In this document: positions 16,177 to 40,497 of the stretch, piece by piece | Numbering within the stretch: the first letter of the stretch is position 1 | Layout of the letters: the number at the start of each line of letters is the position of its first letter | DNA from: Phoronis australis | Taxonomy: Eukaryota; Animalia; Phoronida | Direction: 5' to 3' | NCBI GenBank assembly: GCA_002633005.1 | Contig: NMRA01000435.1 | Span: 283,679-347,678, forward strand | DNA length: 64,000 bases | Program-made: the position numbers and the translations under genes | The notes under the pieces: model-generated | Told to the model about the DNA's origin: nothing | What the model saw: only the letters and a program-made list of their open reading frames with translations | The model's database searches: none

Positions 16177-19100
16177 TCAAACTTGACTTTCAACCACATC
16201 CTCTTGGAACAAGTTGGCAAGATTCGGCGGTGGCCTAAGTTTTCTAAGTTCTGTTTTCATGTTCTGTACAACCCTCTCTAGTTTTGGGCTCTTGTTGCGA
16301 CGTAGCCACCCCTCAGCTTCCTGAAATAATTCAAATTTATGTATGAATTATTGTAATGTCTGTTGGCAAACTACTATGATCGTCTTCTGAAGGGCATCAA
16401 AGAATCATTATACAGGGAGTGTGACTGGCTCTCCATTGAGGCTGCGCAGGACTTAATCAGCAAGCCTCGTATTTAGCCAACATTTACAAAATTATGAACA
16501 GATTTCAACTCAGTGAAAGGAATTTAGTAGAATGCTGGTAGAATTTGAGTTTTGACTTTATACCAATCTGCCATTCATTGAGTCACATGACCATGTACAT
16601 ACTAAAATTAAAAAGGAAAGTACATTCATAGCAAAACATCAGTATCAATAAAACGACCAAGTTTCTTTTGATAGAAATGTTCATGATGAAATTTCAAAAA
16701 TGCTGTTATGCGTTTTTAAATGATCATTTCATTTTGCAATAAAAATCATGAAAGCTATAATTTTGGTAGCCCCTCACGTGCGTAGGCTCTACGTTCAAAT
16801 GTCAAAAGGTGGTTGGCTGCGCCTACACGCCCCACTACAGCACTGGCCCCTCGTGCATAAGTGCAACATTCTAAAAACAATTCCTCAAACCCTTTGCAGA
16901 AACGCATACAAACCAAAGTATCTGCAAGTTTCACATGAATCTGATCCGCCCCTTTTGAGATACAATGTTCAAAAGTTAACCAAATTTGGACATTTTTCTG
17001 AGGCTCCACATAACTTAAAAGTAGCCTGAGGTAAAAACACAACAAAGTGTGCCTTCAATCAATTTTGCAAGAAAGATGGGCTACTGCCAAACTATTAATA
17101 AATTGTTTGAAATTCACAATTTTTGGGCTACCAAACTGCACAGTATCCCTTTAAATAGAGCCAAAAACGTAAAGGAATTGCACATAGCGACATGCTTGTC
17201 GAACTGGTGAAGAACAATTTAGTTGCCCAATACGTGGTATGTTCAGTTTTTTCTTAGGTCTTCTTACGACAGGACGCTGTTCAAAGCAAAAACCAAAAAT
17301 TTAGCGGGAACAGATTAACACATTTGGTATTAATTATTTACACTATAAAAACAAATTACAAGATTGAAAATGAGCAAGCCATATCACATTTTTACTCTAA
17401 TACCTCAATTAATCTGTCTTTTTTCAAATAAAAGTGGGCATGTATCACGTCTTCAAATCCCGGACTTGGATTTGTTATCTGAGCGTTCACTGCATATTTG
17501 ATGTTGTTTATCATCACGTCTGAAAATATAAAACAGCATAGTACATTTAGGTCACACCAATACTTTACAGACCACACATGGGAAAGAGAAGTGAACAAGT
17601 TCCCTAGAATACCTGATCAGCCATATGATATAAAAACAAAATTAAGGCAGCAGATTTGCTTTTTAATCAAAAATGGCCAAATTGTGATGACCTAGTTTGT
17701 GTAGCTCCAACTTTTCACACATGGTTGTCATGTAAAGTATATCACTAAACAGTAACACTGGTCTAATTAAATAACATGAGTTTAAATAAAAACAAATCAA
17801 TGAGAACAATTATTTCCAATGGTTACCCAACCAATCCAACAACTAAATCATTTCCATTTTCATTCAGCAAAATCATTTTGATCTTTTAAGGAGCTTTAAC
17901 TAAAGATCTACTTAATAGCTGTAAGTTTCTTGAACAACTTCATAAAGAGAATAAGGCTCTACCCAAAACTGCCATGCCCAGCAATGCCTATCTAGGTTAT
18001 AGTGATTGCCACGCCCTCTACCAGTGTCTACATAGGTAATAGCGAATGCCACGCCCCCAGCAGTGCCTACATACTAGATTATAGTCGCTGCCATGCCCAG
18101 CAGTGCCACTGGTTGTCTTTTGCCTTTCATCAGCCTTCATTTTGTTTTTTTCGGACCATAATGGAAATAAGTCTTTGACTTTTTATGTTATCCGTGTCTT
18201 GCACTTGTACTTTAATTTTTTGTCTTGCATTTTACATTTTTCTGTACTTGTGCGATTCTAATAAATTTATTATTATAATTATAACCACATCATAGGCACT
18301 GCCACGCCCAGCAGTGCCTATCTAGGTAATACTCAAAGCCATACTTATCAGTCTTACCTAGGCTATAGTCTGCACTGTGTTTCTTGCCCGGTTCTGTGCC
18401 AATCTCTTGCTCGTAACCCGGCTCATTGAAGTAAGGATCAGCCACCAGTATCAATGACTGTATAGACACTAGCACCTGCAAGATCGTCGACGTCGTTTCG
18501 TTCCACGTCTCACCTTGTTTACCTTCCCACGTGCCCAAAAGCGACAGACACACTTTACCACAACTGGAATAGGACAGACATTACTCAAAGCTCGATTTGA
18601 AAATTGACCAATCACATATGGAGTAAGCACGATACAACAAGACTTTAGAAATCTTAACTTCGTCACGTTACTAAATGTAACAAATAATTTCGAGGATTTC
18701 GAGCTTATCCAACAAAGTCTTATGTCACACAAGGAATGTCCACATTTTCATATTAATTTCAGGATAACGTTATGTTTACACAATCTTCTTGCTTCTCTTT
18801 AATTGTTTTAAATAATTAGTTAATTAATCAGAAGCTTACTGGCCTGCTTTTTGACTTGAAATTTTAAGCTAAATTGCTTTAACTTGCTAGCTTGACAGTA
18901 ACCACAGTGTTTGCAAGTTTGTAGGAAACTCACTTGTATAAGTTGGGGTTAAATCGCACACTACCTCCACCAGTGGTCTGGAAAGAGAAAACATGTCACA
19001 TGAAAAATGCATGGTGACTTCATAATTGATAGAAACAGAACAAGCTTTACCAGTGTTCGGCAGGTTTACAACAATTCAAAGACTGAATTTTAAAGTGCCT

Positions 19101-22100
19101 TTAACCTCTCAGTTTAACTCATTAAAAAATAATTGCAAGGGGTCTGATACACGTTGTACCAGACGTGCGCAGGTCGCACATGTGGGCCCATTGCACTGAT
19201 CACCTGGAACTATTTTTATGCTTTAATAATATATGGTTAAAACCGAGCTGAGGAGCTAGAAACCTGACTCAAGGGTTTAGCAGTGTGACCTGGTGGGACT
19301 CTAACCCACGACCTCGAGTTAAGAAAGCGGACACCTATCACACTAGGCCACACTGCCTCCTCGGTTTAACTCATTAGTACAGGGTAATTTTAAAAAACTG
19401 AATCAGCTCAAACCACTGAATTATCTTTCTGACTGAATCAAAAACCTACAATATGAACACTAATTAAATAAAACCACTTAACAACTGAACCAGTCTTCTG
19501 AATGCACTCATTCTTGAACGCTGAAATTACGCTAGGAATACAAAACTCTTCAGTCACTCGAAAAGTAGATTCAGTGGTTTGAGGAATCGATACAGAATTC
19601 GGAAAATAAATTCAGGATATCCTGTCTCCAGTTACCTACACTCCTTTTACTGGAATTAAGGAAACAGTAACTTACAGGAGTCCCGGATTCTGAGAACCAG
19701 TTTGATGCCCGGTATTCAGTGGAGAAAACTGGTTCTCATATATCCAGGAGCCGTGTAAGTGACTATTACTGAAATTAATAAACTAGTCATCTAGTCAAAA
19801 AGCACAACATTAGAAAATTCACAGATTACCCAATGGCAGAATGCTAAGTCATGCTTAAATCAAATGGAAAAGCCTGCAAGAAAACCAACCACCAGATGGC
19901 GCACCCACCTGCAAATGGAAAAGTTAGCACACCCACCTGCAGATTGACCCTTGGAGGTCGAGTTGGGTAGCCTTCGTCAAAATAGATGTCAAACAGATAA
20001 CAGCCGCATGTATAGGGCGTCCCCTCAGGCCTACAAAGAAGATGGGTGGAGACATAATCTCATTCTTGATATCAACTGGTAACGACATACTATAGCACAC
20101 AGGTTAGACTGAGTTTGTGCAGTAAAGTGAGCATACTTCTGAACAAAACGTCAATTACAGAACTTCACCCATGCAGTACAAAGCACACTTACCCTGTAAT
20201 CAGCGCCTTCATCAGGGGTAATTTGTCATCATCCTAAAATAAAACAAACAGACTTAGACAATACTATACAAAAACAATGACACAGTCAAAGGAAGTTATA
20301 ATAAATAAAATTCAAGTGGTTAAATGTATTTTCAAACTTTAATTTAAGATTATTTTCCTTTTTCACCCCACGCTACTAACAGCCATGGACTACACTGTAA
20401 CCTAACACACAATCAGGACTTGTTCCTTTGACAGAATACCGTCCCTTAGCCAGCTGTTTCTCTTGTCCTCAAGACGTGATTTGCCATTTTCAAATTATTT
20501 TATCATTGTTGCGTCACTGAGAGAGCAGACGTAGAAAACCACATGACTTCTAGAAAGTCATTGTTTGTGAAGCTATTAAAGGTTTTGAAAACCCAGCACA
20601 ATTAAAAAAATTGACTTCGACTTTCTAATTTGAAACAAGTATTTGTTAGTTTTTTGCACAAAACTCAAGATATGAGTCATCCTTCAAAGAGTGAGTGTTC
20701 ACTTTCAGAATTAGATGTTGAATTTTGTTTTTGACAACAGCTTTCATATACAAAACGTACTGTATGTTTATTGTATGAAACAGTACTACTTACTGTTCTG
20801 ACAAAGATGGAAGAGGATAGCTCCAGAGGTAGTGACGAGGACAGTGATGTGTATTCTTGGGCAATTCGAAACACCTGTGACTGAGACGGAACTGCCATGT
20901 TGTTAAATTGGCTACTGTAATGATGAGCATTAGACCCATCCACTGGAACAAGCAAAAATAGATTACTAATCAACGAAAGGAGCAGAGACGCAGAGACGGT
21001 CAATCTTCACCAGCAGTAGCTGATAATCAATCCACTTTGAAATACAGTAATTCTCCACCTATTTCGCACACCCATTTGAAAGCGCACGCTCAAAATTATT
21101 TCATAAAACTATTTCTTCGTCCACTTATTTCACACCAGGTTACTTGGTGGGAATTTTTTGCCTGACCTAAACACAAATGGCTGATAATTAATTACTTTTT
21201 ACAATGACTTTACTAGATCTTGTATCAGATAAAATAATTCGACGAATGGCCATTTTCTGAAACAACTGTGACAGTATGAAACCAGCTTAATCACTGGATA
21301 GCGGTGGACAGTGTTCAGTGCCACTTAAGATTTAAATGAATATTGAAAGCAGTAGAATTTCTCAACACTTCCATAATGTTTGTGCAATCATCACACAGTC
21401 AAATTTTCACTGTTGGGTGGTGGGATGTTCACAGGAAGTGCAGTGTGTTTGTGTGAAAAAAATTGCGTTTTGTCTTTCTTGTCAACTTGACCTGTATACA
21501 GCACCTGAATTTGAAACTGGGTCAAGCATTTATTAATACATTCATGCTCTCAAAATGCTAATAAAAGAGCTGAAAGGTGGATATTTGATATTCTAGCATC
21601 CTCGAACAACATACCTGACACACCAAAGAAAATAAATCCCCACTTATAAACACAGCTCACGGCCCGTAAACTCACAAAAGTGTGTTTGCGCACTTTTAGT
21701 AGCTCGTTCTTGTATCTGTCAGCCTCGTTTTCATTTTATTGCTGACAAAAGATGACCAGTCTCAAAATGTAGCTGACATATTTATTTGTTATTTCTCTCA
21801 GTGGTCTGTTCTACTGTCACTCTTTGGAGGACCAACAATTACACCAACAGTTTGAGAGAGCCTCCATTAAAATTGTGAACAGACAACACTGCCATATTCT
21901 GTGTACAACAGCGGCTGGTGCCAAACTACTCGTACTCTACCTAATTAGTTATTCAAGATGGTGGACAAAACAATGGAGTCATGTGTGAATGCATTCTTTA
22001 AATCAAGGAGGCAAGAATTATGGGTTTGGTAGAATCTCTCCAATTTCGAACACAATATGGCTGACAGCTGAAATAATATTTCCTCATTTTTCCACGCAAG

Positions 22101-25100
22101 ATATATAGCAACAAATTTATGCTTTACTACGTTCAAGTTTTATACAACATCTGCATCATAAAAACACTTTGAAAACTTCTCGGCGCTCACAACAATGCAG
22201 GAAGACCTTGAAAAATGAGAAAAGGACCAATTTTGGTAATTATAAACAATGACAGGCAATTTAGCTAACTCACGATCAATATCCTGGCAGTCGAACTGGA
22301 TTTCTTGCAAGACCCTTTTATATTTGGCTTCCAGAATCTTTTCCTGGAAAACATTTAACACATATTTAAATAGATAACTTGTGGAGAATAACATTTCTGG
22401 AAGAAGTGTAAATTTCATATTAAAAATATTAACGAGTTTCACAATCAATGAGCGAACACTAACGAACTGAAACTTACCTTCCAACAGATGAGAAGGACAA
22501 ATTTTTACGATCAAAGCAGTGAAACTTGGGGGTAAAGAATTATAGTTATGAACAATATTGTAAATAGTTAGAAGTTTTTCATCTGTTCCCCTTCTTGGAT
22601 TACACCACAACTTTAATGAAAAGTGATAAAATTCTGCAAATTTTACCACCTGTTTTGAAGACGACTCTCATAAGCTAATACCCACTATTAAAGATAACGA
22701 ACCGTAAAAACATATCGAATATGATCCTGAACACGTGATGAACTTCTATTAAAAATTCTCTAGTTTAAGACAGTCTCTCGATGCAACATTTTTGTGCTTC
22801 CCCATCGTGTGTACCAGTGGTGAGCCATCGTAATTCTTGAATTTGGAATGGCATTTACTATTTCTAAAATTTGGTGCAAGCTCTGAACCTGAGCAAAATA
22901 ATCTGTCCCAAACTGGAGAATGTTTACCATAATTCATATCCTACCTTATCTAATACTGGCACCTCCACCTGCTCATTGTTTGATTTCTTGGGGGAGTAGA
23001 ACGATTCATTTTGAATGTTGTCCCTCTTGAATATGTCTGTGATATCCTTGTGCAGAGTAACTAATTCTCTGAAAAAAAATGTAACAGCCTGAGAACAAAT
23101 TAATGATAAAGTAAATTAAAATTTAATTCAATAAATGTGGTGAATAATGCCATCTAGTGATACACACTGACTCAGGGAATTCGAAAAACAGGCCCACAAA
23201 TGTTAATGAGCTCATGGGAAACAATTGTGAAAACTTCCTAAATGTCAGCACACCAGCAAACACTGGAATCCAGAATACTATTCAAATTTTCAACAAAACA
23301 CACAAGATAAACCAATCCTTTAAAAGAGTTTGTGAGAGATAAAATGTCTACCTCTAAATGCAAAGATAATGTTTAGAGTCACAAGATGTAGTACACCCCA
23401 TGCTGTGACTTAATGCCAACAAGTGCCACTTAACAAATATATCCGCTGCAAAATGTGATCAGAAGTTTCCAGCAAACGAAAGTAATGTTTTAAAACAAAT
23501 TTAATTTTTCTATTCGCAGAAAAAGAAGCAATGAAAGAATGAGTATAATAACATTCAAACAGAAATGACAACAAACAGTAAACAAATACCCTCATAAACA
23601 AAATATCAATTAAAAATAATTAATCGACAGTCAGCAAGCTTACTTGTAAAACTGAGAATATAATTTGGTCAAGAGAATTTTGAAGCTTATCAATGTTTTG
23701 TTTGCATAATTTATGTACTAGTTTGCATAATTTATGTACTAAAGCTGGTTTTACCAAGCTGAGAATGCTGGAAGACATTGGTCATTTGTAAGCAAAAGTT
23801 ACCTTAATATTCAAAGATTGGATTGAGTCAAATTAACTAAATACCTTGCTAGTTTTTCTTCTTCAGCCGTCTGCTTTGCAGCGGCCAAAGAACTGGACGA
23901 GGATTTCTCCGGCGAGCTTGACGCGAAAGGAAAACACGTCTGCTCTAACTCTTTATCCTTCTTTGACTTCTTCTTCACCGGTTTAGGAATGGCGCCATTG
24001 CCCGACTTGGACATGCGACTAATTAAGGACGTGGCCTGGGAGACGAACATAACAGATGAAAGTTATCCATCGAGGTTCACACATGGCTAATATGGCGAAA
24101 TAATGCGTGAGTCCACTGTGTGGTATTGTCGTCTGCTAGATTTGGAACCAAATTTATTCTAAAGAGGGGTAAGATAATCCATACAAATAGCTCACCATGA
24201 CTCTAATCTTAATAGAGGGTGAACTATTCCAATTCCCAAAGATTTAAACCCTACCAATCAGGAAATACATGTACTCGACGAGTCCAGGCGATGACCCCAC
24301 ATAGTGGACTCACTGAGTGAGCAAAACGGTGGGTTGCCGTAGAAATATTTCACCATTATTCCACAACTGTAGCCATGAGTAACAGTTTAGTATTTTTCAT
24401 AACAATGAAATACTTTGAAGTTCTACTCCTCTACAATATACACAACAGCTGCACAGTACTAGAGCCGTTGATAGATTTTGACCCTTGGACCAGTACTGAT
24501 GCAGAAATTTGTTCAAATCAACAAGGACTAGAGGGGACATTGTGTTAAAAAAAACTGGTGATGCCAAATGAAAGTATCCGAGTCAACTTGCTTGACACAA
24601 CTTCATCACCAAATTTGACCTTTGTGCTTTTCATTCAATAACTCAATTGACCGATAGTGAAATGCTTTGAGCTCCATTCATTTCCAAGAATACAAAACAC
24701 GGTTGCTAGAACTGTCTCTAAAATCTTAAGTAGCTTAGATTTCTGAACATTCTCAAGACTTTTTCATGATGTTATTAAAACTTTAGGAAACCTTCCGCAT
24801 ACCCTCACAACAGGAATTTTTAAATTCTACACAGCCATTCTTGACAAGTAAAAACTTATGACAAATTCATAACAAAAGAAATTGATGAAATCTTGAACAT
24901 TTGTAATGGTACGTCTTATCTTTAGCAGAATAGATGTTTTTGCAACTTAATAAAATCTTAGTTAAAACTTGCAATTCCTTCGCTGATATTTTGTCCGAAT
25001 AAAATGATAGTTTTTGTGATAACGGTATAATAATGTTTCCTCTATCAAACACTTGTTGTTGTACTTCAAACAGAAATCTTCTTGTCAGTACAATTGTAAA

Positions 25101-28100
25101 TAATATGTTCTGTTTCAGGCTTACTTTTTGTTCCATGGTTTTGACTAAGTTGAATACAGACTCCTCCTGCTCTGGTAGCATGCAAAGCAGACGGATTAGT
25201 TGGGGCTGCAGCGCTGAAAATCAAAATATTAAAGGAATAAGCCTCTTTAAAACACCATGATTTGTTAATTTTATTTATGTAATAACAAATAGTATATATA
25301 AACTTTTAGGTTCTCTTTTCATGGAGCAAATTGACCATGTCAATGCACATTTACAATTTTATCAACTTTTATAATAGTCCGTGAAAATTCCAATTTACAT
25401 ACCTAGTTCCCTTATGATGTCTATGATGGCTTTATACACCTGAAATTTAGGAAGGACATTTTTACTAATTAGTCATGTATCAAATGGGTTTAGTATCCTT
25501 TTAAGCACCCTTCAACTGCCAAAAAAGCAGGTGATTCATTCACCTATCACTGACACAAAGCTCAAAGGAATTTTTCATGCGAAGTGCCTTACAAAACTAA
25601 ACCCCAGATCGTGAGCCTAAATATACCAACTATTCAAGACTGGTAAACACCGATCCTGGCATTTCAGTTCAAGAGCTTATATTTAAATGCTCATACTCCA
25701 CTTTAAAAAACTCATCCCCTGATTTTTTACATTTTCAAGTAATACATTCTGGCTTGCACAGATATGTACATATCTTAAAGAAAAATCGTTCTAATTAAAC
25801 CTAATTGACAAATACTGCTTCAGAAAGTTAGTGAAAATCCAATCTGCAATTTCTCCCGGACATTTGCAATAATATTACAGTTACGTTAAAAACTATACAA
25901 TAACTGCAGCTCAAACAAAGTTTATTCTAGTGTTATGATTAAACGAAATTGGAGAGAATGAATAGCAACAGACTCACCGACATGTGTCTGCAGATTTCAA
26001 GAAATGAGTCAGCTTTCATGTATTGCTGAAGACAAACAAAAATAATAAGATGAAGTCAGTACACTGATATACGACAGAGATACACAGTTAAAGTACAGGG
26101 GAAACAATCTTCCACATTCAACTCCCAGTTCTCAGTGACAATATTGTGCCTGACGAACACAATTCTTTTCGCACTAAGCTGCATTTCTTCTCTCGCGTAC
26201 TTCAATTTTGTGCTTAGGGTCAAATTTCTGTACCCATGAACCTTAGACAGAGTTCTAGGATAAGTGCATTGGATACGACAGCAGTTTGTGAGACAGTTTG
26301 TTTGCCGTGACAAAGATTTTCAAACTGTTTTGAGGAAGTCTTGTACTCATTTGAAGCCAGAGTAATTAAGGTATGGCACAGTTCACTTTAATTGTCTTCA
26401 TACTGAATTGTACTTACCTCAATGAATGGAATGAGTGATGATCCCTCCAGTATGGTAAACATGTCCTCCACGGGATCTACCACTTCTAAAGGGGTGTTTG
26501 TTGGCCCACTGGCATTTCTAGGCTTTAACTGTGGTGCATGGTTGGCATATAGGATTTTCAGTTCGTGTAAAATTTTGTATAGAACAGTTTCAACCTGAAA
26601 CAAGAACAACGTGAGTATGACAGTGGTTGTGTATTTCAAACTCAATCTATGCAATATTCACAAGTCTGACTTGGCGATTAAAAAAATTTCACCATGCAAA
26701 CTCACGTCAAAACTAGTTACAGATAAAGATTCTCCAATCTAAAATGAAAAGGGCTTTCTTCCACTTTTCAAAGGCTTAATATAACGGTCGAAATACCAAA
26801 CTGTCATGTGAACACAGATGAAAGTCTGAAAGATTAGTCTTCCTAGACACTCAGATGTCACAACTGAGGGACTGATAAGTTGAAAAACGAAAAAGTGAGG
26901 CATCAGCAGAACACGGAAAATTGCACGACTTCAAACTACGACGACGATTATTCTTCGCCAATTTAGTGCACAGTAAAATATATATCAATAAAATGATGAA
27001 TATAAAAAAAATAATTAGTTTGTTGGTAGCTGTCATTGTACTGTGCATATGTCGTCAAACAAAATTCACCAGTCTCCATTATTTGAAGCAAGCAGCCTTT
27101 TGGAAAATTTAAAAATGAAAATTTTTGCGATTATTTTTGTCTCCATAACAGCAAGTAGCAGCATATGTTAATAAAAACAATGACGGATTTAAACCAGCTT
27201 GACATGTTTCATCGTTTATTAAAACACCATCATCAGAAGAAAAAACAGTGGCCACCTTGCAAGGCACAACAACAAGGTGGCCTCCGTCTTTTCTTCTGAG
27301 GATGGTGCTTAAATAAATGCCGAAACAGGTCAAATCCGTTTAAATCCGTCATTGTTTTTATTACTTATTTTTGTGCTAATAAGTAAAAAATATTGTATCT
27401 AGTGCTTGCAAATCAAAGTCTATCCACACAACATTATAGTTAGGGGAATACAAAGAGCAGGATATGACGGATGAAAGCAGTGCAAAGAAGCTTTAACAAT
27501 TTTGTGCGTCCAAAAGTGCCCATAAACTGTGCACTGTACAGCCGTCACAACAAAATACTGACACTATCATAAAAACGTGACTTTAAATTTAAAGCCACAA
27601 ATCAGCAATATTTTGTCAGTGAACTCATTACCTGATTGTCCTTTTCCTTCTGAGCCGCAAGGTATGCCTTGACGTCCCACCCTGATCGTTTCTCATGGCC
27701 ATAGCCGGTACCCGGGGCCCAGTATTCATGATTCCGTGGGTCGTCACCCTCGCCCGATGGTCTGTTGACTACGGCAGGAGCCTGCCGCACCTCGGACGGG
27801 TCGAGATGGAACTGCAGATTGACCCGTGGGTTGACCTCGCTGACCTGTCAACAAGGCACTTATTCTATACATAACTGCCATTCACGATAAATGTTTGACA
27901 AAACAACAAAAAATACAATTTCCAAACTATTGAAAGTATGAATTTGGACTAAAGGAAACAGAAACAATAACTAGGCATTCCCTATCATGACGGCCACTAT
28001 GTTTGGCACATAATCTCTAACCTTCACATTAAAATTATTATTTTGCAAGTGAAAACCTGCACGATTAAAAAAATTCTGTGAGTTTAAATTTCAATCATAA

Positions 28101-31100
28101 GACGCCATGATACATGAAAAATAAAAATTTCAATTTCAAAACACGTTAAACTAAAAAACGTCATTAGCAACTCAGCTCGTGATGTTGCTATGCAGTCGGA
28201 ACAGTCGACTTTCCCCCAACAGACAACGGATTTTTCAACTTGGCTGATTTTGCTTCAAGAACACTGACAACTTTAAAGTTAATTTCGACCGATTTTAAAC
28301 GAGAAATAAATACTCAAGATTAATTATATTTTAAAACCCTACGTAGAATGCAGACAAATCCATAACAGTTAGCAGCTCTCTTATCGTGATGGGAAATTCC
28401 AAGATTACTTTTGGTGTCACCTGTATCAATAATATATTCACTTAGTTCACAAAAATTATCCGAAAACCATGACTGGAAACAAGAATGAACAACAAAAACA
28501 TAGTATGTACTAATCGCTTACCAAAGAGAGTCGAAGAAGATGGTGTTCAATTTCGACATAAGAACCAGCTGGGTATCGCTTTGGGTCGTTACGTTCACTC
28601 GAGACTTCCAACCTGGAAAAAGGGAACAAATAATAAAAACAAAACTACTAGTGAGTGATAGACTAAATCAGAGAGACTTCTATCAATGTATGACGTGAAG
28701 GATCTGGAAAGTACCACAGACGCAAGCTGTACTTCCACGGATGTCGACCAATTACAAACTATGAACGTGTTGTTTTATGACTGCTGTACAAAATAAATTG
28801 CGCAAACAATGTAGCAGAATTCAGTAATCTTCATTTTTGAGAAGTTAGACAAAATTAATGAGGCAATTCTTCACCTATATAGGGCATAATATGGAGGACG
28901 CATGAAATTTTATTTTCTCAAATTTCTCATACAAAAACAAAGATTTACAAAACATTAAAATTCAATAAGTTAAAATTAACAAAATCATTTGCAGCAAGGT
29001 AGTCAGCTTTTGGAAAATTGAAAATGACAATTTTGACAATTATTTTCGTGTAAAATAATACCGTATCCTTTTTTCAACTATTTGTAAAATTATAACAGAA
29101 TTCTGTTTAGTTACAAGACAACAACAACTGCTGACTGCCGGACTGTAAGTAAACTATGCTGGTTTACTCTTAGTTAAGTGCCAGTCTGAGAACGTGTGTG
29201 TGCTTGGTATCTAAGTAAAAAACCCTACCTCGCCCACTGCTGAAGAAATACTTTGATGTCGTGCAAGACACCTTTCATGTCCTTGGCAGGGTTCCAATAG
29301 GACAACTTAAGGATCTCCATGTTAGTGACTCTTTGCATCATGGACCCCTGCAGAGACCAATCAATCAACATATCTGTCAATCAGTGTTCAACACTCATGC
29401 AAAGTAAAAACTGGTGAGCAAAAACAACCAATTTTTTATGGATCTTAACCACTTTCTAAAACCGCTCTGAGGTGGTGGTGTTACAACCAAAACGTCGTGA
29501 CAGTGTAAATAGACAAGAAGTCGGTGTAAATAGACCAAGAGATTTTAATAATAGATGGACCTTAACAGTCCTTGGCTTCCAGATTCACCCATCATTGCTC
29601 TCCCTAGGTCCATACAACCTGATATTGCCCTCGGGATCAGTCCGCATTTCTATAACATTGATTATGTTTCAGTGCAATATGAAAGAAAATTCAAAGCAGC
29701 CAATAATGAAGTATCAGTCTATTTAGAGGAGTTTTCACAATATTGCTGGGGACCTAAAATGCAACATAAATGTGCGAGACAATAAATAAATAGAAAGTTG
29801 CAAACCTGTAACCTTGGTCTTATGACTTTGACCAGCGGAGGATAAAATGGATAAAGGTCTATGGTGAAGTCCTGGAATTGACATGTATACAGTTTTGATG
29901 ACTTTGGTGACTTACATGATGACTGTGGGGAAAGGCCGCCTACTTTAAAACACAAAATCCAATTTATGATACAGTGGGAAAATGTCTTGGGTGAATAATT
30001 CTTTCATGACTCAGGGGAGATAATGATGATGCATCAGTGTCTGACAGAAACGCCTTTTGACAACTCATCAAAACAGGGTTCAATGTCCTTTTAAATTTGA
30101 AGAAAGTGAATTGACGGTGCTCGTATTGTATACAGCGTTAAGAGACCCTCCTAACTAAACAAGCGTTCATCATAGCGTAATCAAGTTGTTACCCGCCTCC
30201 TATAACTGCATACACTGCCGCTGTAACACAACGGAATTATAAATTTCTTGGGTAAAGATAAGCCAAATGCATAATCTTCATAATACTTTTATTTCAATTG
30301 CAAATGATCACACTATTTTATTAAAATAGTCCCAAATTTTTAAATGAGAAAATTTCAAATCAAATACAAACTTTCTTACAGTGCATGTGTGATGTAGCTT
30401 CAAAATTTCTCATTACAACCTTGAAAATGAGGTCAAGGTTACCCAAATGCAGTAGATACAGGAGTTGCTACACGTTTAACTCAGTACAAAACAAGAACAC
30501 AATCCACAACTTCTTCATTGAGATTATGCTTTTGTCTTCTGAATTATGATAAAAGTCAGCAATTTGATTATGAATAGCCGAAAGTTGATTTTTTGAGTTT
30601 TGCTTTTCTCGAAAAGTTTCCTCTTCTGTCAAGTTGAGCAGGCTACGAGTTTATGTCTTAAGACTTCGAGACTTTGTGCGCAGACTTTCTGATTTCAGCC
30701 TTAGCCTGTTTTCATGAAACATACTAAGCCATATGTAGAATGATTTTTAGCTAACAGTCAAAACACAAAAACCAATAGGAACATTGAGAAATGGTGTCCT
30801 GGGTGTAATTAACTGACACAGAATGAAAGTACCAAAAGTCAATGACGGGTTCAACACAATGACCTATTTACAACATTTTATCAACTATTCCTGGTGCATT
30901 TAGAACCAGAATATGTCCTACCAATTGAAGCTCAATGTAACTGTAACCAAACTTCTCATTTATCTCAATGAGGTCTCTGTGCAGATCACTTTCTTCTTCA
31001 AACTGATAAAGTCTCACACTCCACTGGTATATATTATTGTCTATGGGTTCTGCTGAGAATCCAAAATCCTGAAAAATTCACCCAGGCTCATTGCATAAAA

Positions 31101-34100
31101 TAAGTAATGCTACATGTGAACACAAATATTTTTTTAAGTCTGGTCTTCACGCCACCTATTGGTGGCCTACTGAACATGAGTCTGAAAAGATTGCTGCACC
31201 TGACTGGGACTCGAGCCCAGGACCTTCTGCTAACCGTGCAGACGCTCTAGCCACTGAGCCATCGGGACCACTGGTCAAACACAGAAATCCAATGAGATTT
31301 AGCAGTGGCATCCCGCCCATGAAGACCAGATGTATATTTCCATGCTGGTTTAAGATTTACAAAATTATATACCTACTAGTGAACATTGGGAAATCACAAT
31401 GGTTGGACATGAAACAAACTGAAGCCAAAACTACAAACAGTAACTTTAAAATCCTGAAGATGAAAATATAAAAAAGGCTTAAAATTCAAGCTATTGTAAG
31501 CCAGTGAGCATTGGCAATATGATTTGGCTGAAGACAAAAACTAACTTTTGTGGCAATCAGTAAGGTAATATCCAGTCAAATTATTATTTGATTGACACAT
31601 TGCATTTTTAACTTTCCCGACATCAATAAATAAAATCAATAAATAGAGATTAAAAGATTCAAAACATTTTGTTGTGACGAGTGTGCATGCTTGATATTCC
31701 AACTCACAAGCATATTGTTTCAGTAAATGACATTACTGAGGTGGTGACTTTAAACAACGCCTAAATCCACATCTCATCCTTGGCTTAGAACAGTCAACAC
31801 GATTATCACTAATATTATTATTACTATTATTATTACTAATATCTATTCTGTACTTATGTTGTTTTCCAAACTTAATGTGAAAATATAACATTTCTGGGTC
31901 ACACATATGCCATCGTAACTCACAATTTAGAAACAAACCTCATCGCTCTCCATAATTCGTACAAGATCATTGGTCAGTATGCCCGAGGCTGCGTCGCTTG
32001 TAAATATCTGTTTTGCCTGTTTCTTCTCTTGCCCTGATACTGCGGTCAAATGTTATGTAAATACTAATTATGGGAATCTGGCAGATCTTCAAAATCAATT
32101 ACCAGCAGTGTTCAGCAGTCAACCACTAATTATAATTGATGAGATTTGAAGAGAGTGTATTGAAGGTTGCGTTGTGTTATTTTCAGACGTCAGAGCCTTA
32201 GATTAGCATGTTGATCATAAGTTATTTTTGATATTTTACAACAATCGACTACTTTTCAGTAATAAATCATCAACAGCCATTTTTCGACAATAAATCACAA
32301 ATTAATGCGATACTTCTCTTTATCAGCAGCCGCATGGTTAAAACTCTCGAAAACTAGAATGGGCCTGTCTTCAATTGAACTCTTCTCTTTAGCGGAGGTA
32401 AAAATGCATTGCACGGCTGACCTACTTTTCAAACAGTCAAGCACTCTTCATCTGATTAAAAGGGGAAGAACAATACTTTGTGCATCCGGCATTGATATTG
32501 GTCTTTTTTGGATTTTGTTGAAGTCCTCACGTAACGTGTGTGTGTGAGGAAGCTGGATAAGTGCTTGGCACTTGTGTTGCATTGTAGGTAAATACCTCAG
32601 AATGAGAGTGGTGGTCTCATTTCAGGACAGGCCTATTATCTCCATGGCTGTGATCACTAATTCTAGTATCAAAGTGCTTACGGTAGATACCAACTAACAT
32701 AGAAAGTGTATTAAGTATTTATATGCACCAGAAAAACCAAGCATTTCCGTCAACGAACAAACTCAGATAGGTAACATGGTATTTAAAATTAAGTCCAAAT
32801 GCAGAGAAAAACAACAAGTGGGGAAGCGAAGGAAAACATTTTTCATTGATTTTTGATTCCTGAAGAGCTAAGGCTACTTGAAGACTATCTTTGAGAACAT
32901 GTTTTTTCAGCAACAAGCTTAAAGTTTCTTGTCAGAACCCTGTCATTGCTCAACAAAACAGAATTCACAAGCAGCCACAAAAATATGTTCACGTCATTCT
33001 TACATATCCATGGTTCGCAACATTAATACCTTGGATGGCTCCGAACTCGGCACATGTCACGCAAGTCTGTTTCATCTGCTGGCGAATCTCAGCTTCTTTT
33101 TGTACCCATAATTTCTAGGAGAACCAGCAATAAATACAATAAATACAAGTTACAACCAAAGATAAATACAACTTATAATCGAGTGATACCTTTTCAGATA
33201 ATACTAGCCCAGCATGTGTGCTAACAAGAGACCACACTGTTAATGTTCCTTTCCAGATGAAATCGTTTCTGAGAAGTGTTTTGATCTGTTCGAGAATGCA
33301 TTCTGGGAAATAAGCTATATCTAAGGTCATAACATTGTGGGTTTGTGCTTCAACTTTTTCACTGCCACGTGCACCTGTCACACATTTACCCAGTCACTGC
33401 CAAACATGCCGACCAGCCAGTTGGGTACTTTCCACTCTTGACCTTGACCTAATTCATACAAGGTCAATTCTGCAGTGTATAAAGTCAACTCAAAGCACTA
33501 TCATTAATACATACTCCTTTGAAAGGTCAGAACATAGAATCTTTACATCTTCATAGCATATCTCATGCTGTGTAAATAAGAGGTGAAAGGGTTTCTTGGT
33601 TAATTTCGCACACCAGTGGAGTATAAGTCTGTATATCCAGAATACTCCGTAACCACACACCCCCCCCCCATTGGGAATATATACTCAATTGATTTTGTGC
33701 GAATTACGTGAGAATTTGTAAGTAAAAAGAACATTGAAAAGGAATGTTCAAATTACCAGCAGGACATGGCGTGAAATTTGTGGAAAGCAAGCAAGTGATG
33801 TGTCCTACCTTCCTCCTAGCAATCTTAAGTTCCCAGTCTGTTGTGAACGCACTATCATCGTCCGACATGGCCACCATCTGAAAAGTTAATTTGATCACCA
33901 GGTCAAATTTGTCAAAAGATCACGAGTCATTCCAAGGTAGATGTAGAGCAGTATCAGACAGCCGCTTCAGCAAAATGTAAGCTTTCAAGAAACATAAAGG
34001 TTAAGGAAACAAATCACTGAAGACATCGTTGTTTCGCAAAGTATACTGGTTTCACTATATAATTTACATATTTCTAACATATCATGGAAATCTTGTTTTA

Positions 34101-37100
34101 TCGTTTCTTCCATAATCAAAGATACAGAGCACCCAAATAATGCTAATTTGTGTCTAAGATAAGTACCGTGCATTTTTTAATAATGTAACATTTTAATTTA
34201 TATAGTGATCATCATAACAAACCTCTGTGTCATCTTCTTCCTCGACATCCTCGTCACTCATGTCAACTTCTTGTTCATCATCTGAACTTTTACAAGCAGA
34301 CGAACTGCTGTGTAAGGAGGCTCCCCTAAAATATTTGGTTATTTCACAATTAGAAAATGAAATCTAAAAATATCATAACATTGCAAGACAGAGACCTTCA
34401 TATCTGTAACCAAGTATCTTTATTTAAAACTAGAATAAGAAAATTGAACAACAAAAGAATGCACTAAACAGACAGGTTGTAATGCTGTTTCTGTTGCATT
34501 TGACGACATGACAACCTTGTCTTTTTGCGTGAAGGCGAGAGATAAAGAGCCATGGCAATAGTCTTATGCTCCTGCGTGTTCATTCAGCATGCCTCCAGTA
34601 ACTCGTAAGAAGACATAATGAGAACTCTTGTTGGGTAACATAACTGACAGAGAGTATTCTGGGTGTTTATGAACCAATTCCTTCCATAATTTTAATTCCT
34701 TGGAAGCCCTCTAATCAATGTCAGAGTCGGCCATTTTGTTAGTTTGTGCCAGTAGTGATTGACTTTGTCGGTTCTACCCGGTCAACCAGCAAAGGAATTC
34801 CATTGGTTTAAAAGCTGTAAGTCGTAACCGAGAACCAGTGGGATGTCTCAGCTGGCTGACCCAACATAACAGGCTTACTTGTGACACTTGAATTAGACCT
34901 TGCATAATACTACCATGATCTCGTATGATGTCGCCAAACTCACAAAAGCAGAAGCCCCACTGGCTGTGCAGCTCTCTTACAAAGAAGGTAAGAAAGTTGA
35001 CACACGGCAAAAAGAAAATGAAACAGAATAAGGCAAAAACTATATTTAAGTCGAGAAATGACTCACTTGTCCAAAAGTTGCTTGAATGAACACCTTTCTG
35101 TCAGGCTGAGCAGGTACTACAACAAAAAACCGACAAAATGCTAAGAAAGTAATCCACAAAAATTAGTCATTTAATCGTTATATAGCTTGTAGAATTGAAA
35201 AGTCAAAACTATGCAAAAAGAATTTAATTCCTGGAGAAACATTCAACAGTAGTTCTGTTAAAAATGTAGTGTTCTAACCATAAGGGCATCAATATTATAT
35301 GAGTCCTTTAGCTCACATCTGACAACACCATCAACAGAATACTTTTGTGTGACTGACACAGACACTGATAATGTCCAGCATATTATGGACAAACTAAAGC
35401 AACTTGACCTAAATAGGACAAAGGTGACAGTTTGACACACTCAAGAGTGCTGAATTCTCAGAACAATGACCAACACTGAACCCAACATAATAACCGGACA
35501 AGTAATGACATTGCAATTACCTTAATCACCTCCAACTGGTGGACACTAAATGCATGGTTGTCTGTTAATTAACACTAATGACCAACAATGCCTGCTATTC
35601 ACTACTTGCAGAAATTCTCCATAATGCTAGAAAACGACATGGTGTGACTAAACGACCAGTGGTTCTACACGTTTGGAACGCGCATGCTTTCACGTTTGCA
35701 TTGTCAAAACTAATGCTAAAAACGAGGCATTGCAATCTAAACGACAATGCACAACAATCATTTTTGCAATGCCACCAAAGAGTGCACGTGAATACTACAA
35801 TAGTCTAAAACCTAGGACTGTGAGACAATCCCGAGGTACAATAATACATCCACATTTATTGTGTTCAGTGATTGCTCAGTTCTTTGTCAAGAGTAATTAT
35901 TCCTCATGACAATTGGCTTAAGACAGATGAGAATAGCCAACAATATTTCTTTGGCAGTGCACAAACATAAAAACAGGCTCGTCCTATGATGGGTGAAGAA
36001 ACTATTCCAACAAAAATATGAATACACAGTGTTTTATAGACCACAAGCCTGCATTCACTTACACAAATCACCTGATTATGCTTGGTGACATGGTATATTA
36101 TAGACCACAAACCTGCATTCACTTACACAAATCACCTGATTATGACTCAACCTGGAGCTTCTCATGGACAAAGCCTGCCCACTTTTTTCAGGTTATTTTA
36201 AAGACTTAGTGTTACAGTTAACAAGATGTTCTTACCTCATTCAATGCATTACACCAGAGAGCCATGACAGGAGTTGTCTCCACATAGAAGCAGTCTGTGT
36301 GCAAGGGATATCCTAAGGGAGACAATCTGGCACTAGAGCAACTTTGCAGCACCACTCAACCTGCGCTTTCTGTCAAAGCCGACTTTTGATTTAGGCCACA
36401 TAGCTTTATAAAATTGGGTTAATATTTTTTCCCCGATTAGAAATAATTTCTGGTCTTAACAAGCACTGACAGATGGTTGTTACATCAAACAAAGCCTGTT
36501 AAGCTGTATGTCACATCAGGTTAGGGAAATATGGCCGTCAGGGGAATTCTGGATGATTTATTACGACCAATTTCAAACTGTAACTACCTGTGAAGAAAGT
36601 CAGTGTTTGTAACACCAGGCCCAGTTGCATAAAAGTTATACGATGTACAGCAACAATGACGTCGCATTATCACGTGCATTATCACGTGCATTGTCACGCG
36701 TCACGTTGTCATTGTTGAACAATGCACCTGACGTCATTTAACAATCAAACTTATCCAGCACATGATTTTGAAGCTTTATGCAGCCCAGCCCAGAATAGTA
36801 TCTACAGCAGCTTCAAGACTATACAGCACGCTGTGACAATACAGCACGCTGTGACAATACAGCACGCTGTGACAATACAGCACGCTGTGACAATACAGCA
36901 CGCTGTGACAATACAGTACGCTGTGACAATACAGCACGTTGACTACTTTAATTAATGTTATTCGCTGCATGTTTAAAGCTGTCCTTCCTTGCAACTGTCT
37001 ACTTGAACATGAAATTAAGTAATAACTTGACTGAGCCAATCACACAGGGCCTGAAGTCTCCTCGTCACGATAACATGTATTCAGAAAGTAACTGTGGACT

Positions 37101-40100
37101 GAATTTAAACTTTTTATGACTTTCTAGCAAACCCGTAAAATTTTTAATTTCTAAAATCTTTGATGATCACAGAATCTTATTACATGCATGAAAGCAATAC
37201 TCAGATGTTTGTAATCGCAAGACTGAGTTTTTTCTAAAAATCACCATTTTTCACGGAGATGTTTTCCAAAAAATTTTTTGCTCAAAACGCGCAAGTTGTT
37301 TCATTTTCTGTTCAGTGCAAAAGGGTGTCTGTAATTTTCGTTTAGCCAGAGAACTCTTCAACCCCTAGTAGAATGAAGAGAATTTGTAAATTTTGAGCTC
37401 AAAGTCACTTTTGTCATAAATACAGCAAGCAAGGTGAATGCAATTTTAAAAAAAGCAGTTCCGTGATTACGAACATCTGGGCATAACTTTTGTGCGCAAA
37501 ACATAATTCTCAAATCTTTGATCGAGGGTTTTCAAAAAAATTATAGTCCCGCTATGGATCTACAATTTATACCTAAAAGTTATTTGTAAGAAATTTGAAA
37601 ACTGATAATGAAACTATCCAATTACCTTAAAAGCACAAAACCGACCAATGAAAACAGAGAGCATAGTTACATTTCCAGCCAAGAGGGGGCCAGTATGATG
37701 GTTACTCCACAAATTAAAAACAGTGAAAGATCAATGGAAAAAGTCCAACCATGGTAAGAACAATTCTAAGATTGGTTTGAAGGAGATTCCATTTTGTTTT
37801 TGGACAGCTGAAGTAAAGGAAATATGGTAAAAAATCTGCAATTTGGGACGGACTCTTAGAGACAGAGAAACTGATGCAAATTTTTTTCATTCTGGAATTT
37901 GGGACAAGAGCGAGTTCAGCGTTCACCACATTTCTCAAATTTCAGAAAATGTGTTTTCAATCTACAGAGTGGAAAATTTTGCCATATTTCCTGTGATTCT
38001 TGAATTTGGGACAGCTATTATTTCCTTTTCTAGAATTTGGGACAAACTCCTAGCTTGAGCAAAACAATTAACTTTTCACTGTCCCAATAGAGAATTTTTA
38101 CCGTACAGTTTAAAATACTGTCTTTCTCAGAGCCAGTTCATTTTTAGGAAACTACTATCATGACAACTAGAGGTAGAAATTAACGCTTAAGAGATCTTTT
38201 CTCGTTTTGTTTCCGTCCAACATCAACACGTAAGCTCATGATTATACAACACGGTCATATAAAATGGCACGAACTTTACCTTTTGGACATAAGACTTTAA
38301 ACTCATGCTCACTTCCAAGTAACATGGATATAACGAGACTACCGCTATCATTTCTACCAGCCTGAAAATAAACATTTATGAGAAAACAAGACACTAATCC
38401 TTTTAACTGCGTGATAATTAACGACATCAAATACAGCATCAGTGAGTAAAATTAGCATCAAATACAGCACACATCACGAATTTTTGGCCGACCGGTCGGA
38501 AATTGGTCGACGACCGGCCGTCGACCGGTCGTCTAGCCGACCAGCAGCCGACCAACAACGGTCGGCTAGGAGCCGTCTGCTGAGTCGCCTCTGTGGTCGG
38601 CACTTGGGTCGGCTAAATGGTCGCCTAGCGTAGACGACCAATTCGGATTAAGCGTGTCCTTGGTCGGCAATTACCATTTTATGACTTAGTGGGTGAACTT
38701 TGGCCAAACAAACATTGAACAGTTCGCTGTTCGTTCAGCAGCGGCAACTCTGGTCTTGACATCGGTTTATCAACTTGTGTTCAACTATTGAAAGGTGTTA
38801 AAATCGACTCAACGGCGTGATAAAATCAAACGTTAAGTGATACCGCGGAAGCATAATTTCTGTCTCTTAGTATGATACTTTTTATACAGTATATTATGCA
38901 TAAAAACAAGAAAGAAATTTGAAATTTTACAGTAAAATTGCCAAATTTCAGAATACAACGCTGGCTGTTTTACGACCTCAAGTGTTATCATGCCGCGGAA
39001 TGCTTAACAAGCAGCACTTATTCGCGCTCATCTGTTATTGCTCTTGATCATCACTTCATCACGCTGTATAATGCGCTTTACCACAGATAATTTTTGTTTA
39101 TTTTTGTATAATTTCTTANAGTAAAGGAAATATGGTAAAAAATCTGCAATTTGGGACGGACTCTTAGAGACAGAGAAACTGACGCAAATTTTTTTCATTC
39201 TGGAATTTGGGACAAGAGCGAGTTCAGCGTTCACCACATTTCTCAAATTTCAGAAAATGTGTTTTCAATCTACAGAGTGGGAAATTTTGCCATATTTCCT
39301 GTGTTTCTTGAATTTGGGACAGCTATTATTTCCTTTTCTAGAATTTGGGACAAACTCCTAGCTTGACCAAAATAATTAACTTTTCACTGTCCCAATAGAG
39401 AATTTTTACCGTACAGTTTAAAATACTGTCTTTCTCAGAGCCAGTTCATTTTTAGGAAACTACCATCATGACAACTAGAGGTAGAAATTAAAGCTTAAGA
39501 GATCTTCTCTCGTTTTGTTTCCGTCCAACATCAACACATAAGCTCATGATTATACCACACGGTCATATAAAATGGCGCAAACTTTACCTTTTGGACATAA
39601 AACTTTAAACTCATGCTCACTTCCAAGTAACATGGATATAACGAGACTACCGCTATCATTTCTACCAGCCTGAAAATAAACATTTATGAGAAAATAAGAC
39701 ACTAATCCTTTTAACTGCGTGATAATTAACGACATCAAATACAGCATCAGTGAGTAAAATTAGCATCAAATACTTGTAAGTTAAATTACATACAACCAAG
39801 AAATTAAGTTATCTAATATCACAAATGAGAAGTTGATTGAACTGACAATTTATGCAGTGTCAAGTGAGCTGCAAATTGATAACCAAATTGTGCTGAAAGC
39901 ACGGTCTTGCCTGATGCAATTTATATACTGACAAATCAGTTCCAAACTGATAACCAGTTTTGAGACTATAGACATTTTGCAAAACAACTACAAATGTTTG
40001 AAGACTTTGATTCATGAACAAACTAGTTGTCATTTGCCTCCTGATACAGGAGTATGAGGAAGGGAGGGAACGTAGTGTGAATGTGCTGAGGAGCCTGAGG

Positions 40101-40497
40101 ACCCTCAAGGAAATCAGTACTTGGCACTGACAAATTTACCATAACTAAAAATATTAATAAAATAACACATTGCTATAGAATAAAAGAACAGATTAGGCTA
40201 CAATTTGCCAAACGTGATTTTTTCAGATGGATACAGCATCAAATAAGTGCTTATTAACTTTCGAAGTTTCAGACAATGTTTAGGAAAATAGTGTGCAATC
40301 ACCACATTGTTAGAACCTTTTGGAAAACGGACCAAAACACCAATTTCCGCAATTATTTGTCCAAAATTGGTGACATTTTTCTAAGCATACACTACCTCCA
40401 GCAGAAATATCTCGTCACTCCCGGTATTTTCCTGCCATTTCTCAAATTCCTGCAACAGATGGCTCTGTTCCTCATCCTCTCCACAGCTTGTAGCCAT
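16177..40497 (-). CDS. Large ubiquitin-conjugating (E2) protein, about 944 aa: RWD-like N-terminus, acidic linker, UBE2Q-like UBC fold without catalytic Cys, BIRC6-like C-terminal region with a Cys-containing UBC
   Basis: 27 phase-compatible exons totalling 2835 nt: 40497-40396, 39669-39588 (duplicate at 38361-38280), 36312-36236, 35116-35067, 34325-34223, 33877-33809, 33114-33030, 32039-31939, 31068-30922, 29871-29806, 29347-29229, 28612-28522, 27844-27632, 26594-26418, 26025-25978, 25439-25403, 25213-25125, 24035-23845, 23068-22945, 22343-22274, 20942-20794, 20233-20193, 20030-19937, 18977-18934, 18563-18358, 17519-17404, 16320-16177. Motifs: [99 protein letters not shown]. The exon 7 donor (33030) is the least certain boundary. 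The ATG exon has an upstream acceptor at 40515-40516, so a non-coding exon should lie further right. Confidence 0.88.
17969..18331. repeat. Degenerate tandem repeat of about 38-40 bp (TGCCAYGCCCAGCAGTGCCTATCTAGGTWATA), interrupted by an AT-rich insert
   Basis: About four units at 17969-18110 and one more at about 18298-18331. Confidence 0.75.
19125..19363 (-). mobile_element. Full-length tRNA-headed SINE with a 13-bp target-site duplication
   Basis: Minus-strand head GAGGAGGCAGTGTGGCCTAGTG (A box) ... GGTCGTGGGTTAGAGTCCCACC (B box). Flanked by GTTTAACTCATTA at 19112-19124 and 19364-19376. Confidence 0.8.
19660..19770. mobile_element. Palindromic MITE, same family
   Basis: Core TGAGAACCAGTTT...GGAGAAAACTGGTTCTCA. 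Flanks GGAATTAA / GAAATTAA. Confidence 0.7.
27169..27363. mobile_element. Long inverted repeat with a minimal hammerhead-ribozyme motif in each arm (Penelope-like terminal repeat remnant)
   Basis: Arms of about 90 bp with a loop of about 10 nt. Minus arm 27239-27198 reads CTT-CTGATGA-T-GGTGTTT-TAAT-AAACGAT-GAAA-CATG-TC-AAG. Plus arm 27293-27334 reads CTT-CTGAGGA-T-GGTGCTT-AAAT-AAATGCC-GAAA-CAGG-TC-AAA. Confidence 0.7.
31139..31330 (-). mobile_element. tRNA-like sequence enclosed by short inverted repeats
   Basis: Minus strand GGTCCCGATGGCTCAGTGGCTAGAGCGTCTGCACGGTTAGCAGAAGGTCCTGGGCTCGAGTCCCAG has D, anticodon and T arms but no proper acceptor stem. Perfect 11-bp inverted repeat TCTGGTCTTCA (31139-31149) / TGAAGACCAGA (31320-31330). 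Confidence 0.55.
36034..36144. repeat. Local tandem duplication, period about 64 bp
   Basis: TATAGACCACAARCCTGCATTCACTTACACAAATCACCTGATTATG occurs twice. Confidence 0.8.
36618..36790. mobile_element. PIF/Harbinger-like MITE with an internal hairpin and CACGTG-containing repeats
   Basis: GGCCCAGTTGCATAAA ... TTTATGCAGCCCAGCC termini. Internal CAACAATGAC / GTCATTGTTG inverted repeat encloses repeated GCATTATCACGT. Confidence 0.55.
36821..36938. repeat. 18-bp minisatellite ATACAGCACGCTGTGACA, about 6.5 copies
   Basis: Read directly. It explains the repetitive ORFs (TIQHAV)n and (VLYCHS)n. Confidence 0.95.
37812..39773. repeat. 654-bp near-identical direct duplication (37812-38465 and 39120-39773) including coding exon 2 of the E2 gene
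   Basis: Offset 1308 bp with only scattered substitutions. The second copy begins immediately after N39119. Confidence 0.92.
38466..39118. mobile_element. Left end of a CMC/EnSpm-like DNA transposon, cut by an assembly gap
   Basis: Starts exactly where the two duplicate copies diverge (ACAGCACACATCACG...). Has dense CCGACC / GGTCGG subterminal repeats at 38487-38668 and ends at N39119. Confidence 0.55.

Follow-up and report, generated by a model that had tools for sequence, protein, structure and literature searches.

UBE2O and BIRC6 stand as the sole known hybrids of a ubiquitin-conjugating enzyme (E2) and a ubiquitin ligase (E3) named in the portion of PMC12818219 covered here, which also reports that S4668, W4673, E4679, and L4698 of BIRC6 are needed for E3-free transfer and, in its Discussion, that UBE2O-type hybrids multi-monoubiquitinate. 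The corresponding region of BIRC6 is the end of an armadillo scaffold with a loosely tethered ubiquitin-conjugating (UBC) domain (bioRxiv 2022.08.30.505823 and 2022.08.19.504532, both in part), and the specificity of human BIRC6 for UBA6, a ubiquitin-activating enzyme (E1), is set by E4603 and E4604 (PMC12999496, in part). In the UBE2Q family, the activity of UBE2Q1 requires Tyr343, His409, and Trp414 (PMC10971424, in part). The subject of this study is a 27-exon gene in a 64,000-nucleotide stretch of the Phoronis australis genome (contig NMRA01000435.1; the whole stretch is called the window), whose predicted product amounts to a complete UBE2Q-like chain joined to the C-terminal ~550 residues of BIRC6. 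It is a real spliced gene, and the family to which it belongs is widespread and uncharacterized. To our knowledge, humans lack this pseudo-UBE2Q plus BIRC6-type layout. With confidence a little above even, we interpret the 944-residue protein, by analogy, as a compact E2/E3-hybrid ligase resembling BIRC6 and UBE2O in which a dead E2 module would recruit substrate or partner.

Results

The C-terminal half is of BIRC6 type

In a phmmer comparison, an orthologue of the window protein was colinear with BIRC6 (orthologue residues 398-926 against BIRC6 4300-4816, E = 2e-98), and residues ~405-930 of the window protein correspond to BIRC6's final ~550 residues. Folds were predicted on the Owenia orthologue (P0015, 61% identical), which stands in for the window protein throughout. 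The C-terminal domain of this model matched the UBC domain of BIRC6 (PDB: 3ceg) with a Z score of 32.9 and a root-mean-square deviation (rmsd) of 2.5 over 268 aligned residues, compared with Z scores of 22-24 for UBE2O and ~11.8 for Ubc13. A sequence-only reading of this DNA had proposed that the second of two UBC folds is active and BIRC6-type, and both this match and the retention of its catalytic cysteine, Cys795, bear that out. The preceding helical block matched BIRC6 residues 4212-4499 (Z = 16.5, rmsd 2.9), and between block and UBC lie two stretches with low scores in the predicted local distance difference test (pLDDT; residues 582-621 and 651-673). The motif YWAPGTGYG, which the same reading had placed ahead of the active-site cysteine, is present but lies ~390 residues upstream, where it opens the helical block shared with BIRC6. 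A feature search of the ESM Atlas with exon 13 gave no usable match.

The residues that BIRC6 needs for E3-free transfer have gap-free equivalents in the window protein (Table 1). Among 165 unique two-module members, the Cys is kept in 164, the Ser in 164, the Trp and the Glu in 163 each, and the Leu in 155, most misses being gaps; Cys, Ser, Trp, and Glu are kept in 64/64 viral-locus rows, and the Cys and NPN of the active UBC are invariant. At the UBA6-selecting pair, counted on the profile alignment, the window protein has Asp-Asp (732-733), and the pair varies across the family, which weakly suggests that the enzyme can be charged by UBA1. No BIR domain was matched in any of 32 aligned members, in line with its absence from the initial reading.

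The first UBC fold resembles UBE2Q and has probably lost catalysis

Residues 201-365 of the Owenia model matched UBE2Q2 (PDB: 1zuo) with a Z score of 19.1 and an rmsd of 2.3 over 156 aligned residues, the next row falling to 13.0; in the same search, Mms2 (5ojw_B) reached 10.9 and the ubiquitin E2 variant (UEV) domain of TSG101 9.1. This fold, module 1, was further linked to UBE2Q by Foldseek (E = 6e-9), by a family profile (E = 2e-21), and by an Atlas model with a template modeling score of 0.78 to a UBE2Q1 cluster; exon 9 alone matched UBE2Q1 (E = 1.6e-5), and the domain from Soliformovum matched UBE2Q by sequence (E = 8e-14). Module 1 shares the UBE2Q insert and is without HPN. Pfam gave nothing significant on module 1 (exon 11 against UQ_con, E = 0.13; a single passing UQ_con stretch in the Owenia protein), nothing was returned when exon 9 by itself was used in a word-indexed search for homologues or when exon 11 by itself was compared with PDB sequences, and the Atlas feature search with module 1 gave no usable match. 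A UBC fold had been predicted here from exons 32039-29229, with structure prediction suggested as the check; the Owenia model confirmed the fold but carries it past 29229 to residue ~368, at the start of exon 13.

In the HMMER alignment, a Cys of the Soliformovum orthologue falls on the Cys that is catalytic in UBE2Q1 and UBE2Q2. The same column holds Asn303 in the window protein, and this register upholds the earlier claim that Asn replaces the catalytic Cys. Across 152 unique module-1 domains the column is Asn in 92, Ser in 19, Gly in 8, Lys in 5, Cys in 4, and another residue in 24; the Cys is lost in 148/152. Met stands at the position of the UBE2Q Tyr, His-x4-Trp occurs in 0/24 animal-clade rows, and Ile/Asn/Val take the place of the basic residues found in UBE2Q helix 1. 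Among animals, module 1 averages 69% identity to the window protein (23 rows), the active UBC 72% (22 rows), the helical block 54%, and the tether 25%, so that module 1 is as conserved as the active UBC despite its lost catalytic residues, as expected of a binding module. Judged by these residues, module 1 is a pseudo-enzyme with an apparently dead first site.

In four members (P0147 from Soliformovum, P0186 from Bacillus rossius, P0174, and P0075), a Cys nevertheless occupies precisely the catalytic position, and the starred branches of a tree built with the site column retained force at least three state changes among them. Module 1 might accordingly be not fully dead, the Cys-bearing members being E2s with two active sites that relay ubiquitin in cis. 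We consider this very improbable: the column is mostly Asn, Ser, and Gly, typical helix-cap residues, with Asn in the window protein; the Soliformovum member is without the UBE2Q Tyr and the helix-1 basic residues; and clustering of the Cys rows does not exceed that in shuffles (53/500 as low). An ancestral Cys in module 1 was also considered and is not shown by these data, since change counts are blind to gain versus loss and the insect Cys row lies within Asn-bearing animals.

The sequence-only reading had likened the protein to a fused Mms2/Ubc13 pair, that is, a single-chain UEV-plus-E2 that could position an acceptor ubiquitin or substrate in cis. In such a model, module 1 would hold an acceptor ubiquitin beside Cys795 for the building of linkage-specific chains. 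A Cys-less UBC fold and an active E2 do share one chain here, and the flexible tether could allow their contact. The Z scores above, however, place module 1 nearest to UBE2Q2 rather than to Mms2 or the TSG101 UEV, and the active domain with BIRC6 rather than Ubc13; ~290 residues of helical repeats and low-confidence tether intervene; and the active UBC falls into the E2/E3-hybrid class, which closes ubiquitin without a partner and which, in UBE2O-type hybrids, multi-monoubiquitinates (PMC12818219, in part). The analogy finds no support in these results, and we judge such an enzyme quite unlikely.

The N-terminal region

The first ~110 residues form a predicted domain whose best structural match scored just Z = 7.7 (8adl_C, residues 428-539), which makes the label RWD likely, not firm. 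Its mean identity to the window protein among animals is 40%, the Pfam RWD match in the Owenia protein falls on the C-terminal UBC and not on this domain, and a profile of the animal RWD-like domain matched none of 79 viral-locus open reading frames (ORFs). In the orthologue model, the acidic tract that follows has low pLDDT and leads into a helix (147-175) that is 58% identical in animals. Structure and sequence matches together support the order RWD-like, acidic, UBE2Q-type that had been read from the sequence.

Gene structure and RNA evidence for a single protein

Rebuilt by coordinates, the minus-strand join of 27 exons (40497 to 16177) gives 2835 nt, that is, 944 residues and a stop, with no internal stop and with GT..AG at every intron, exactly as the continuous frame had been described; tblastn with orthologue proteins matched most of its exons. 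The codons assigned to Asn303 (AAC, 29323-29321) and Cys795 (TGT, 18550-18548) are in place, as is every motif quoted beforehand. Three RNA runs carrying the same species label were aligned to 22000-41000 and 26300-30100, a scope that covers introns 1-19. RNA joints support at least 14 of the 19 covered introns, all on one strand (introns 1, 2, 4, 6, 7, 9, 10, 13, and 14-19), whereas none of the joints listed falls on introns 3, 5, 8, 11, or 12. Introns 11 and 12 form the seam between the two modules, where exon 12 has an RNA depth of ~0-2 and coverage is ~0-3 reads. The proposed check of the exon chain by RNA-seq was thus successful for most covered introns but not for these two: the RNA shows expression and most of the exon chain, not the seam.

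The unlisted joints of introns 11 and 12 are what one would see if the exon chain had merged a gene for a UBE2Q-like pseudo-E2 with a separate gene next to it for a short BIRC6-like E2. Seam coverage is, however, just those few reads, and stranded read-through of the seam introns was looked for in the RNA and none was found. Moreover, 12 Logan contigs of 3.0-4.8 kb, taken to be transcripts, each encode a whole orthologue of 940-995 residues; both modules occur in 70/79 intronless viral ORFs (see below); and the junction of exons 12 and 13 falls within a single conserved motif. One protein is likewise indicated by relatives that are colinear and encoded by a single ORF, which come from sponges, lophotrochozoans, ecdysozoans, hemichordates, amphioxus, amoebae, stramenopiles, and giant viruses. 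The two-gene reading is extremely improbable and all but refuted.

The family in animals, protists, and giant viruses

A homologue search with exon 25 gave 3220 matches, of which 120 were listed, and animal relatives were drawn from those listed. Among them, end-to-end identity to the window protein is 61% for Owenia, 59% for Lingula and Ridgeia, 57% for Capitella, 55% for Mytilus, 52% for Priapulus, 47-48% for sponges, and 43% for Strigamia; hemichordate and amphioxus proteins align as two blocks flanking an insert. Relatives were also found in amoebozoans and stramenopiles. No vertebrate name occurred among the exon 25 matches listed, which is no test of vertebrate loss. Of 110 confirmed stretches from IMG/VR, the best 80 were kept; these hold 79 ORFs with a UBC, and module 1 stands before the UBC in 70 of the 79, a count that is not fully independent because the module-1 profile was built partly from virus-like metagenome proteins. 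Whole-length structural matches in BFVD (E = 4.5e-45 to 1e-29) came from Harvfovirus (A0A3G5A7K0), Faunusvirus (A0A3G5A0A9), Bandra megavirus (A0A2K9V8P8), Borely moumouvirus (A0A6G6ABR5), Yasminevirus (A0A5K0U7P8), and CroV (E3T4W8). The suggestion, offered with the first reading, of similar large E2s in protists and giant viruses proved correct through the amoeba, stramenopile, IMG/VR, and BFVD matches, and giant viruses commonly carry the family.

The 19 animal rows of a 51-row tree group in a single starred clade that branches in the order of animal phylogeny and has the window protein among the lophotrochozoans (support 93), and 11 virus-like rows make up another; an 80-row UBC tree agrees. 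The trees contain no true BIRC6. The family is vertically inherited from sponges to amphioxus. A bolder proposal would make it a third, pan-eukaryotic class of self-sufficient ligase, built from UBE2Q and the BIRC6 catalytic end and captured by giant viruses, whose first E2 switches between a receptor (Asn/Ser) and a cis relay site (Cys); by our reckoning this is a long shot.

A portable catalytic end and other fusions

Eight protist-like metagenome ORFs, picked for lacking module 1, were scanned for domains. In these, the helical block and UBC come after other long N-termini or before a complete E1 (5/8 scanned); fused to such varied partners, the pair behaves as a portable catalytic end.

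The five E2-E1 fusions are long single ORFs (L100:2-8866, L101:2-8719, L116:2-5755, L140:2-8023, and L150:2834-8878) that run from the BIRC6-type helical block and UBC into an in-frame E1, with ThiF and SCCH in 5/5, FCCH and 4HB in 4/5, and UFD in 4/5; two of the five were read with code 6 (ciliate-like). A further ORF (L084:157-4005) has a Ufd2P core (E = 7e-119) and then a BIRC6-type UBC, an apparent E4-E2 fusion, and in L093, L094, L115, L117, L119, L124, L131, and L143 a UBC at the N-terminus is followed by ~1,200 further residues. Plant proteins P0001-P0005, P0007, and P0017 carry at least two UBE2O/PHO2-type UBC stretches per record and are possibly fused gene models of tandem paralogues.

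Coordinates and neighborhood

Features are collected in Table 1. Exon 2 is present in two copies (39669-39588 and 38361-38280), the second within a direct duplication that is a tandem duplicate or an assembly join. The RNA joints listed use the copy at 39669-39588, and use of both copies would shift the frame. A splice acceptor 16 bases upstream of the ATG (40513-40498) implies an upstream non-coding exon. Downstream on the same minus strand lies an ORC1-like gene (window 117-3713), with a weak BAH match (E = 0.0047) and, by tblastn, a match to the portion of a scallop gene model that represents ORC1 (E = 1.5e-5). Since gene models from oyster (P0032) and scallop (P0033) fuse the pseudo-E2/BIRC6-type family with ORC1, the neighborhood looks conserved. 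Elsewhere, the window holds a degenerate tandem repeat with a unit of ~44-45 bp (58727-59471) and a related piece at 55769-55876.

Table 1. Features of the 27-exon gene and its surroundings, in window coordinates
Feature	Coordinates	Strand	Basis
27-exon gene, 944 aa	16177..40497	-	frame, splice sites, RNA joints (at least 14), colinear orthologues, orthologue tblastn
Exons 1-9	40497-40396, 39669-39588, 36312-36236, 35116-35067, 34325-34223, 33877-33809, 33114-33030, 32039-31939, 31068-30922	-	
Exons 10-18	29871-29806, 29347-29229, 28612-28522, 27844-27632, 26594-26418, 26025-25978, 25439-25403, 25213-25125, 24035-23845	-	
Exons 19-27	23068-22945, 22343-22274, 20942-20794, 20233-20193, 20030-19937, 18977-18934, 18563-18358, 17519-17404, 16320-16177	-	
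RWD-like domain (likely), aa ~8-105, exons 1-4	35067..40497	-	predicted helix-3 strands-strand-2 helices, pLDDT >90 in orthologue
Acidic tract, aa ~106-145, followed by long conserved helix, aa ~146-178, exons 5-7	33030..34325	-	sequence; orthologue model
UBE2Q-type putative pseudo-E2 domain, aa ~200-368, exons 8 to start of 13	27833..32039	-	structural, Foldseek, profile, and Atlas matches
Asn303 at E2 catalytic Cys position	29321..29323	-	Soliformovum alignment
YWAPGTGYG (27724-27698), helical block homologous to last BIRC6 armadillo repeats, and flexible tether, aa 405-657	22945..27724	-	
BIRC6-type UBC with N- and C-terminal extensions, aa ~660-930	16177..22343	-	Z 32.9 to 3ceg; Pfam UQ_con
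Cys795, Ser797, Trp802, Glu808, Leu827 (BIRC6 C4666, S4668, W4673, E4679, L4698)	18452..18550	-	gap-free alignment
654-bp direct duplication, 97.9% (37812-38465 / 39120-39773)	37812..39773		holds second exon 2 copy; N at 39119

Discussion

By its defining features the protein belongs neither to BIRC6 (no BIR or scaffold) nor to UBE2Q (no catalytic Cys or triad), and it likely works like BIRC6 or UBE2O. With BIRC6 (BRUCE, Apollon) it shares the colinear C-terminal ~530 residues: YWAxGxGxG, terminal helical repeats, tether, NPN/Cys UBC, and the Ser/Trp/Glu/Leu set. It differs in having 944 residues rather than ~4,860, no BIR, WD40, CBM, UBL, or long armadillo scaffold, an N-terminus of RWD-like domain and pseudo-UBE2Q, and Asp-Asp where human BIRC6 has Glu-Glu at 4603-4604. 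The likeness to UBE2Q1 and UBE2Q2 covers the N-terminal 370 residues, with the same RWD-like, acidic, UBC order, the high Z score, the insert, and the missing HPN; unlike them, module 1 has Asn for the catalytic Cys, none of the Tyr, His, and Trp of the YHW triad, and a pre-site loop that is two residues shorter and predicted helical, and its chain runs on into the BIRC6-type half. UBE2O offers a related UBC, shared closed-state and Trp safeguard residues, an N-terminal part positioned to recruit, and an acidic region, whereas the window protein is without matched SH3-like CR domains and has a second UBC fold. Mms2/Ubc13 also pairs an active E2 with a Cys-less UBC fold, but the window protein is a single chain, neither half of which is nearest to Mms2 or Ubc13. 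The giant-virus E2s match over the whole length in structure, and the viral-locus ORFs mostly carry module 1 before the UBC; the former are labeled only 'E2 ubiquitin-conjugating enzyme', and the animal RWD-like profile matched none of the 79 viral-locus ORFs.

In the compact hybrid ligase that we favor, Cys795 would first be charged by an E1, as the invariant Cys and NPN suggest. Ser797, Trp802, Glu808, and Leu827 would keep the ubiquitin in its closed state and protect the thioester with no need for a RING E3, an activity extrapolated from BIRC6. The loosely tethered UBC would then swing to a client held on the N-terminal RWD/pseudo-E2/helical unit, which would replace the giant scaffold of BIRC6; here the flexibility is predicted, and conservation and position suggest the binding role. 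A swinging UBC is supported by the low-pLDDT, poorly conserved tether of this family together with the loose tether of BIRC6 (bioRxiv 2022.08.30.505823, in part). By analogy to UBE2O, the product would likely be mono- or multi-monoubiquitination.

Several points weigh against this scheme. Both seam introns are without listed RNA joints, and every fold comes from a model of the orthologue, 61% identical to the window protein, whose predicted template modeling score is 0.61 as a whole. UBE2Z has a related UBC and a blocking loop, yet the part of PMC12818219 covered counts no UBE2Z hybrid, so that the residues may not suffice. Packing against the helical block, or E1/E3 binding, could instead account for how well module 1 is conserved. 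Along the latter line, module 1 may be a docking or regulatory decoy that binds a RING E3 or an E1, or clamps the active UBC, of an ordinary E3-dependent E2. Canonical E2 loop motifs contact RING domains, and it is these motifs that are best kept in module 1 (Phe281, F/Y in 133/151; Pro283, 147/151; Trp312, 149/151; Pro314, 104/151). The N- and C-terminal extensions of UBE2Q, in addition, mask E1 access (PMC12999496, in part). The same prolines and Trp are, however, the structural core of every UBC-like fold, the replacement of the helix-1 basic residues speaks against E1 binding, and the active UBC keeps its E3-independence residues. We regard a decoy as unlikely and retain the E2/E3-hybrid ligase as the preferred reading.

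Sequences of the family are already public, labeled by their C-terminal half under names such as 'BIRC6-like', 'probable ubiquitin-conjugating enzyme protein 17', and 'Ubiquitin-conjugating BIR-domain enzyme'. No description of the architecture was found in the literature searched, which included few subscription journals, and the first domain may already be flagged in a domain database. Surveys of inhibitor of apoptosis proteins (IAPs) select on the BIR domain and so passed the family over (PMC8917759, PMC13159474, and PMC12999496, each in part), and the sections covered of an E2 evolution review (PMC11354881) and a giant-virus virolog review (PMC10583209) do not describe it. For Caenorhabditis elegans UBC-17, the namesake of some entries, the literature gave only an RNA interference interaction with ubc-25.

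For annotation, these results mean that many invertebrate 'BIRC6-like' entries are a BIR-less protein and not IAPs. Vertical inheritance from sponges to amphioxus, together with the presence of the family in amoebae (including Dictyostelium, where genetics is possible) and giant viruses, points to a probably conserved pathway that is missing from human-centered E2 lists. A relative of 700-950 residues with the same catalytic end and a pseudo-E2 front would make a small and tractable system in which to ask how a hybrid chooses its substrates, and the family would inform the origin of the BIRC6 catalytic end.

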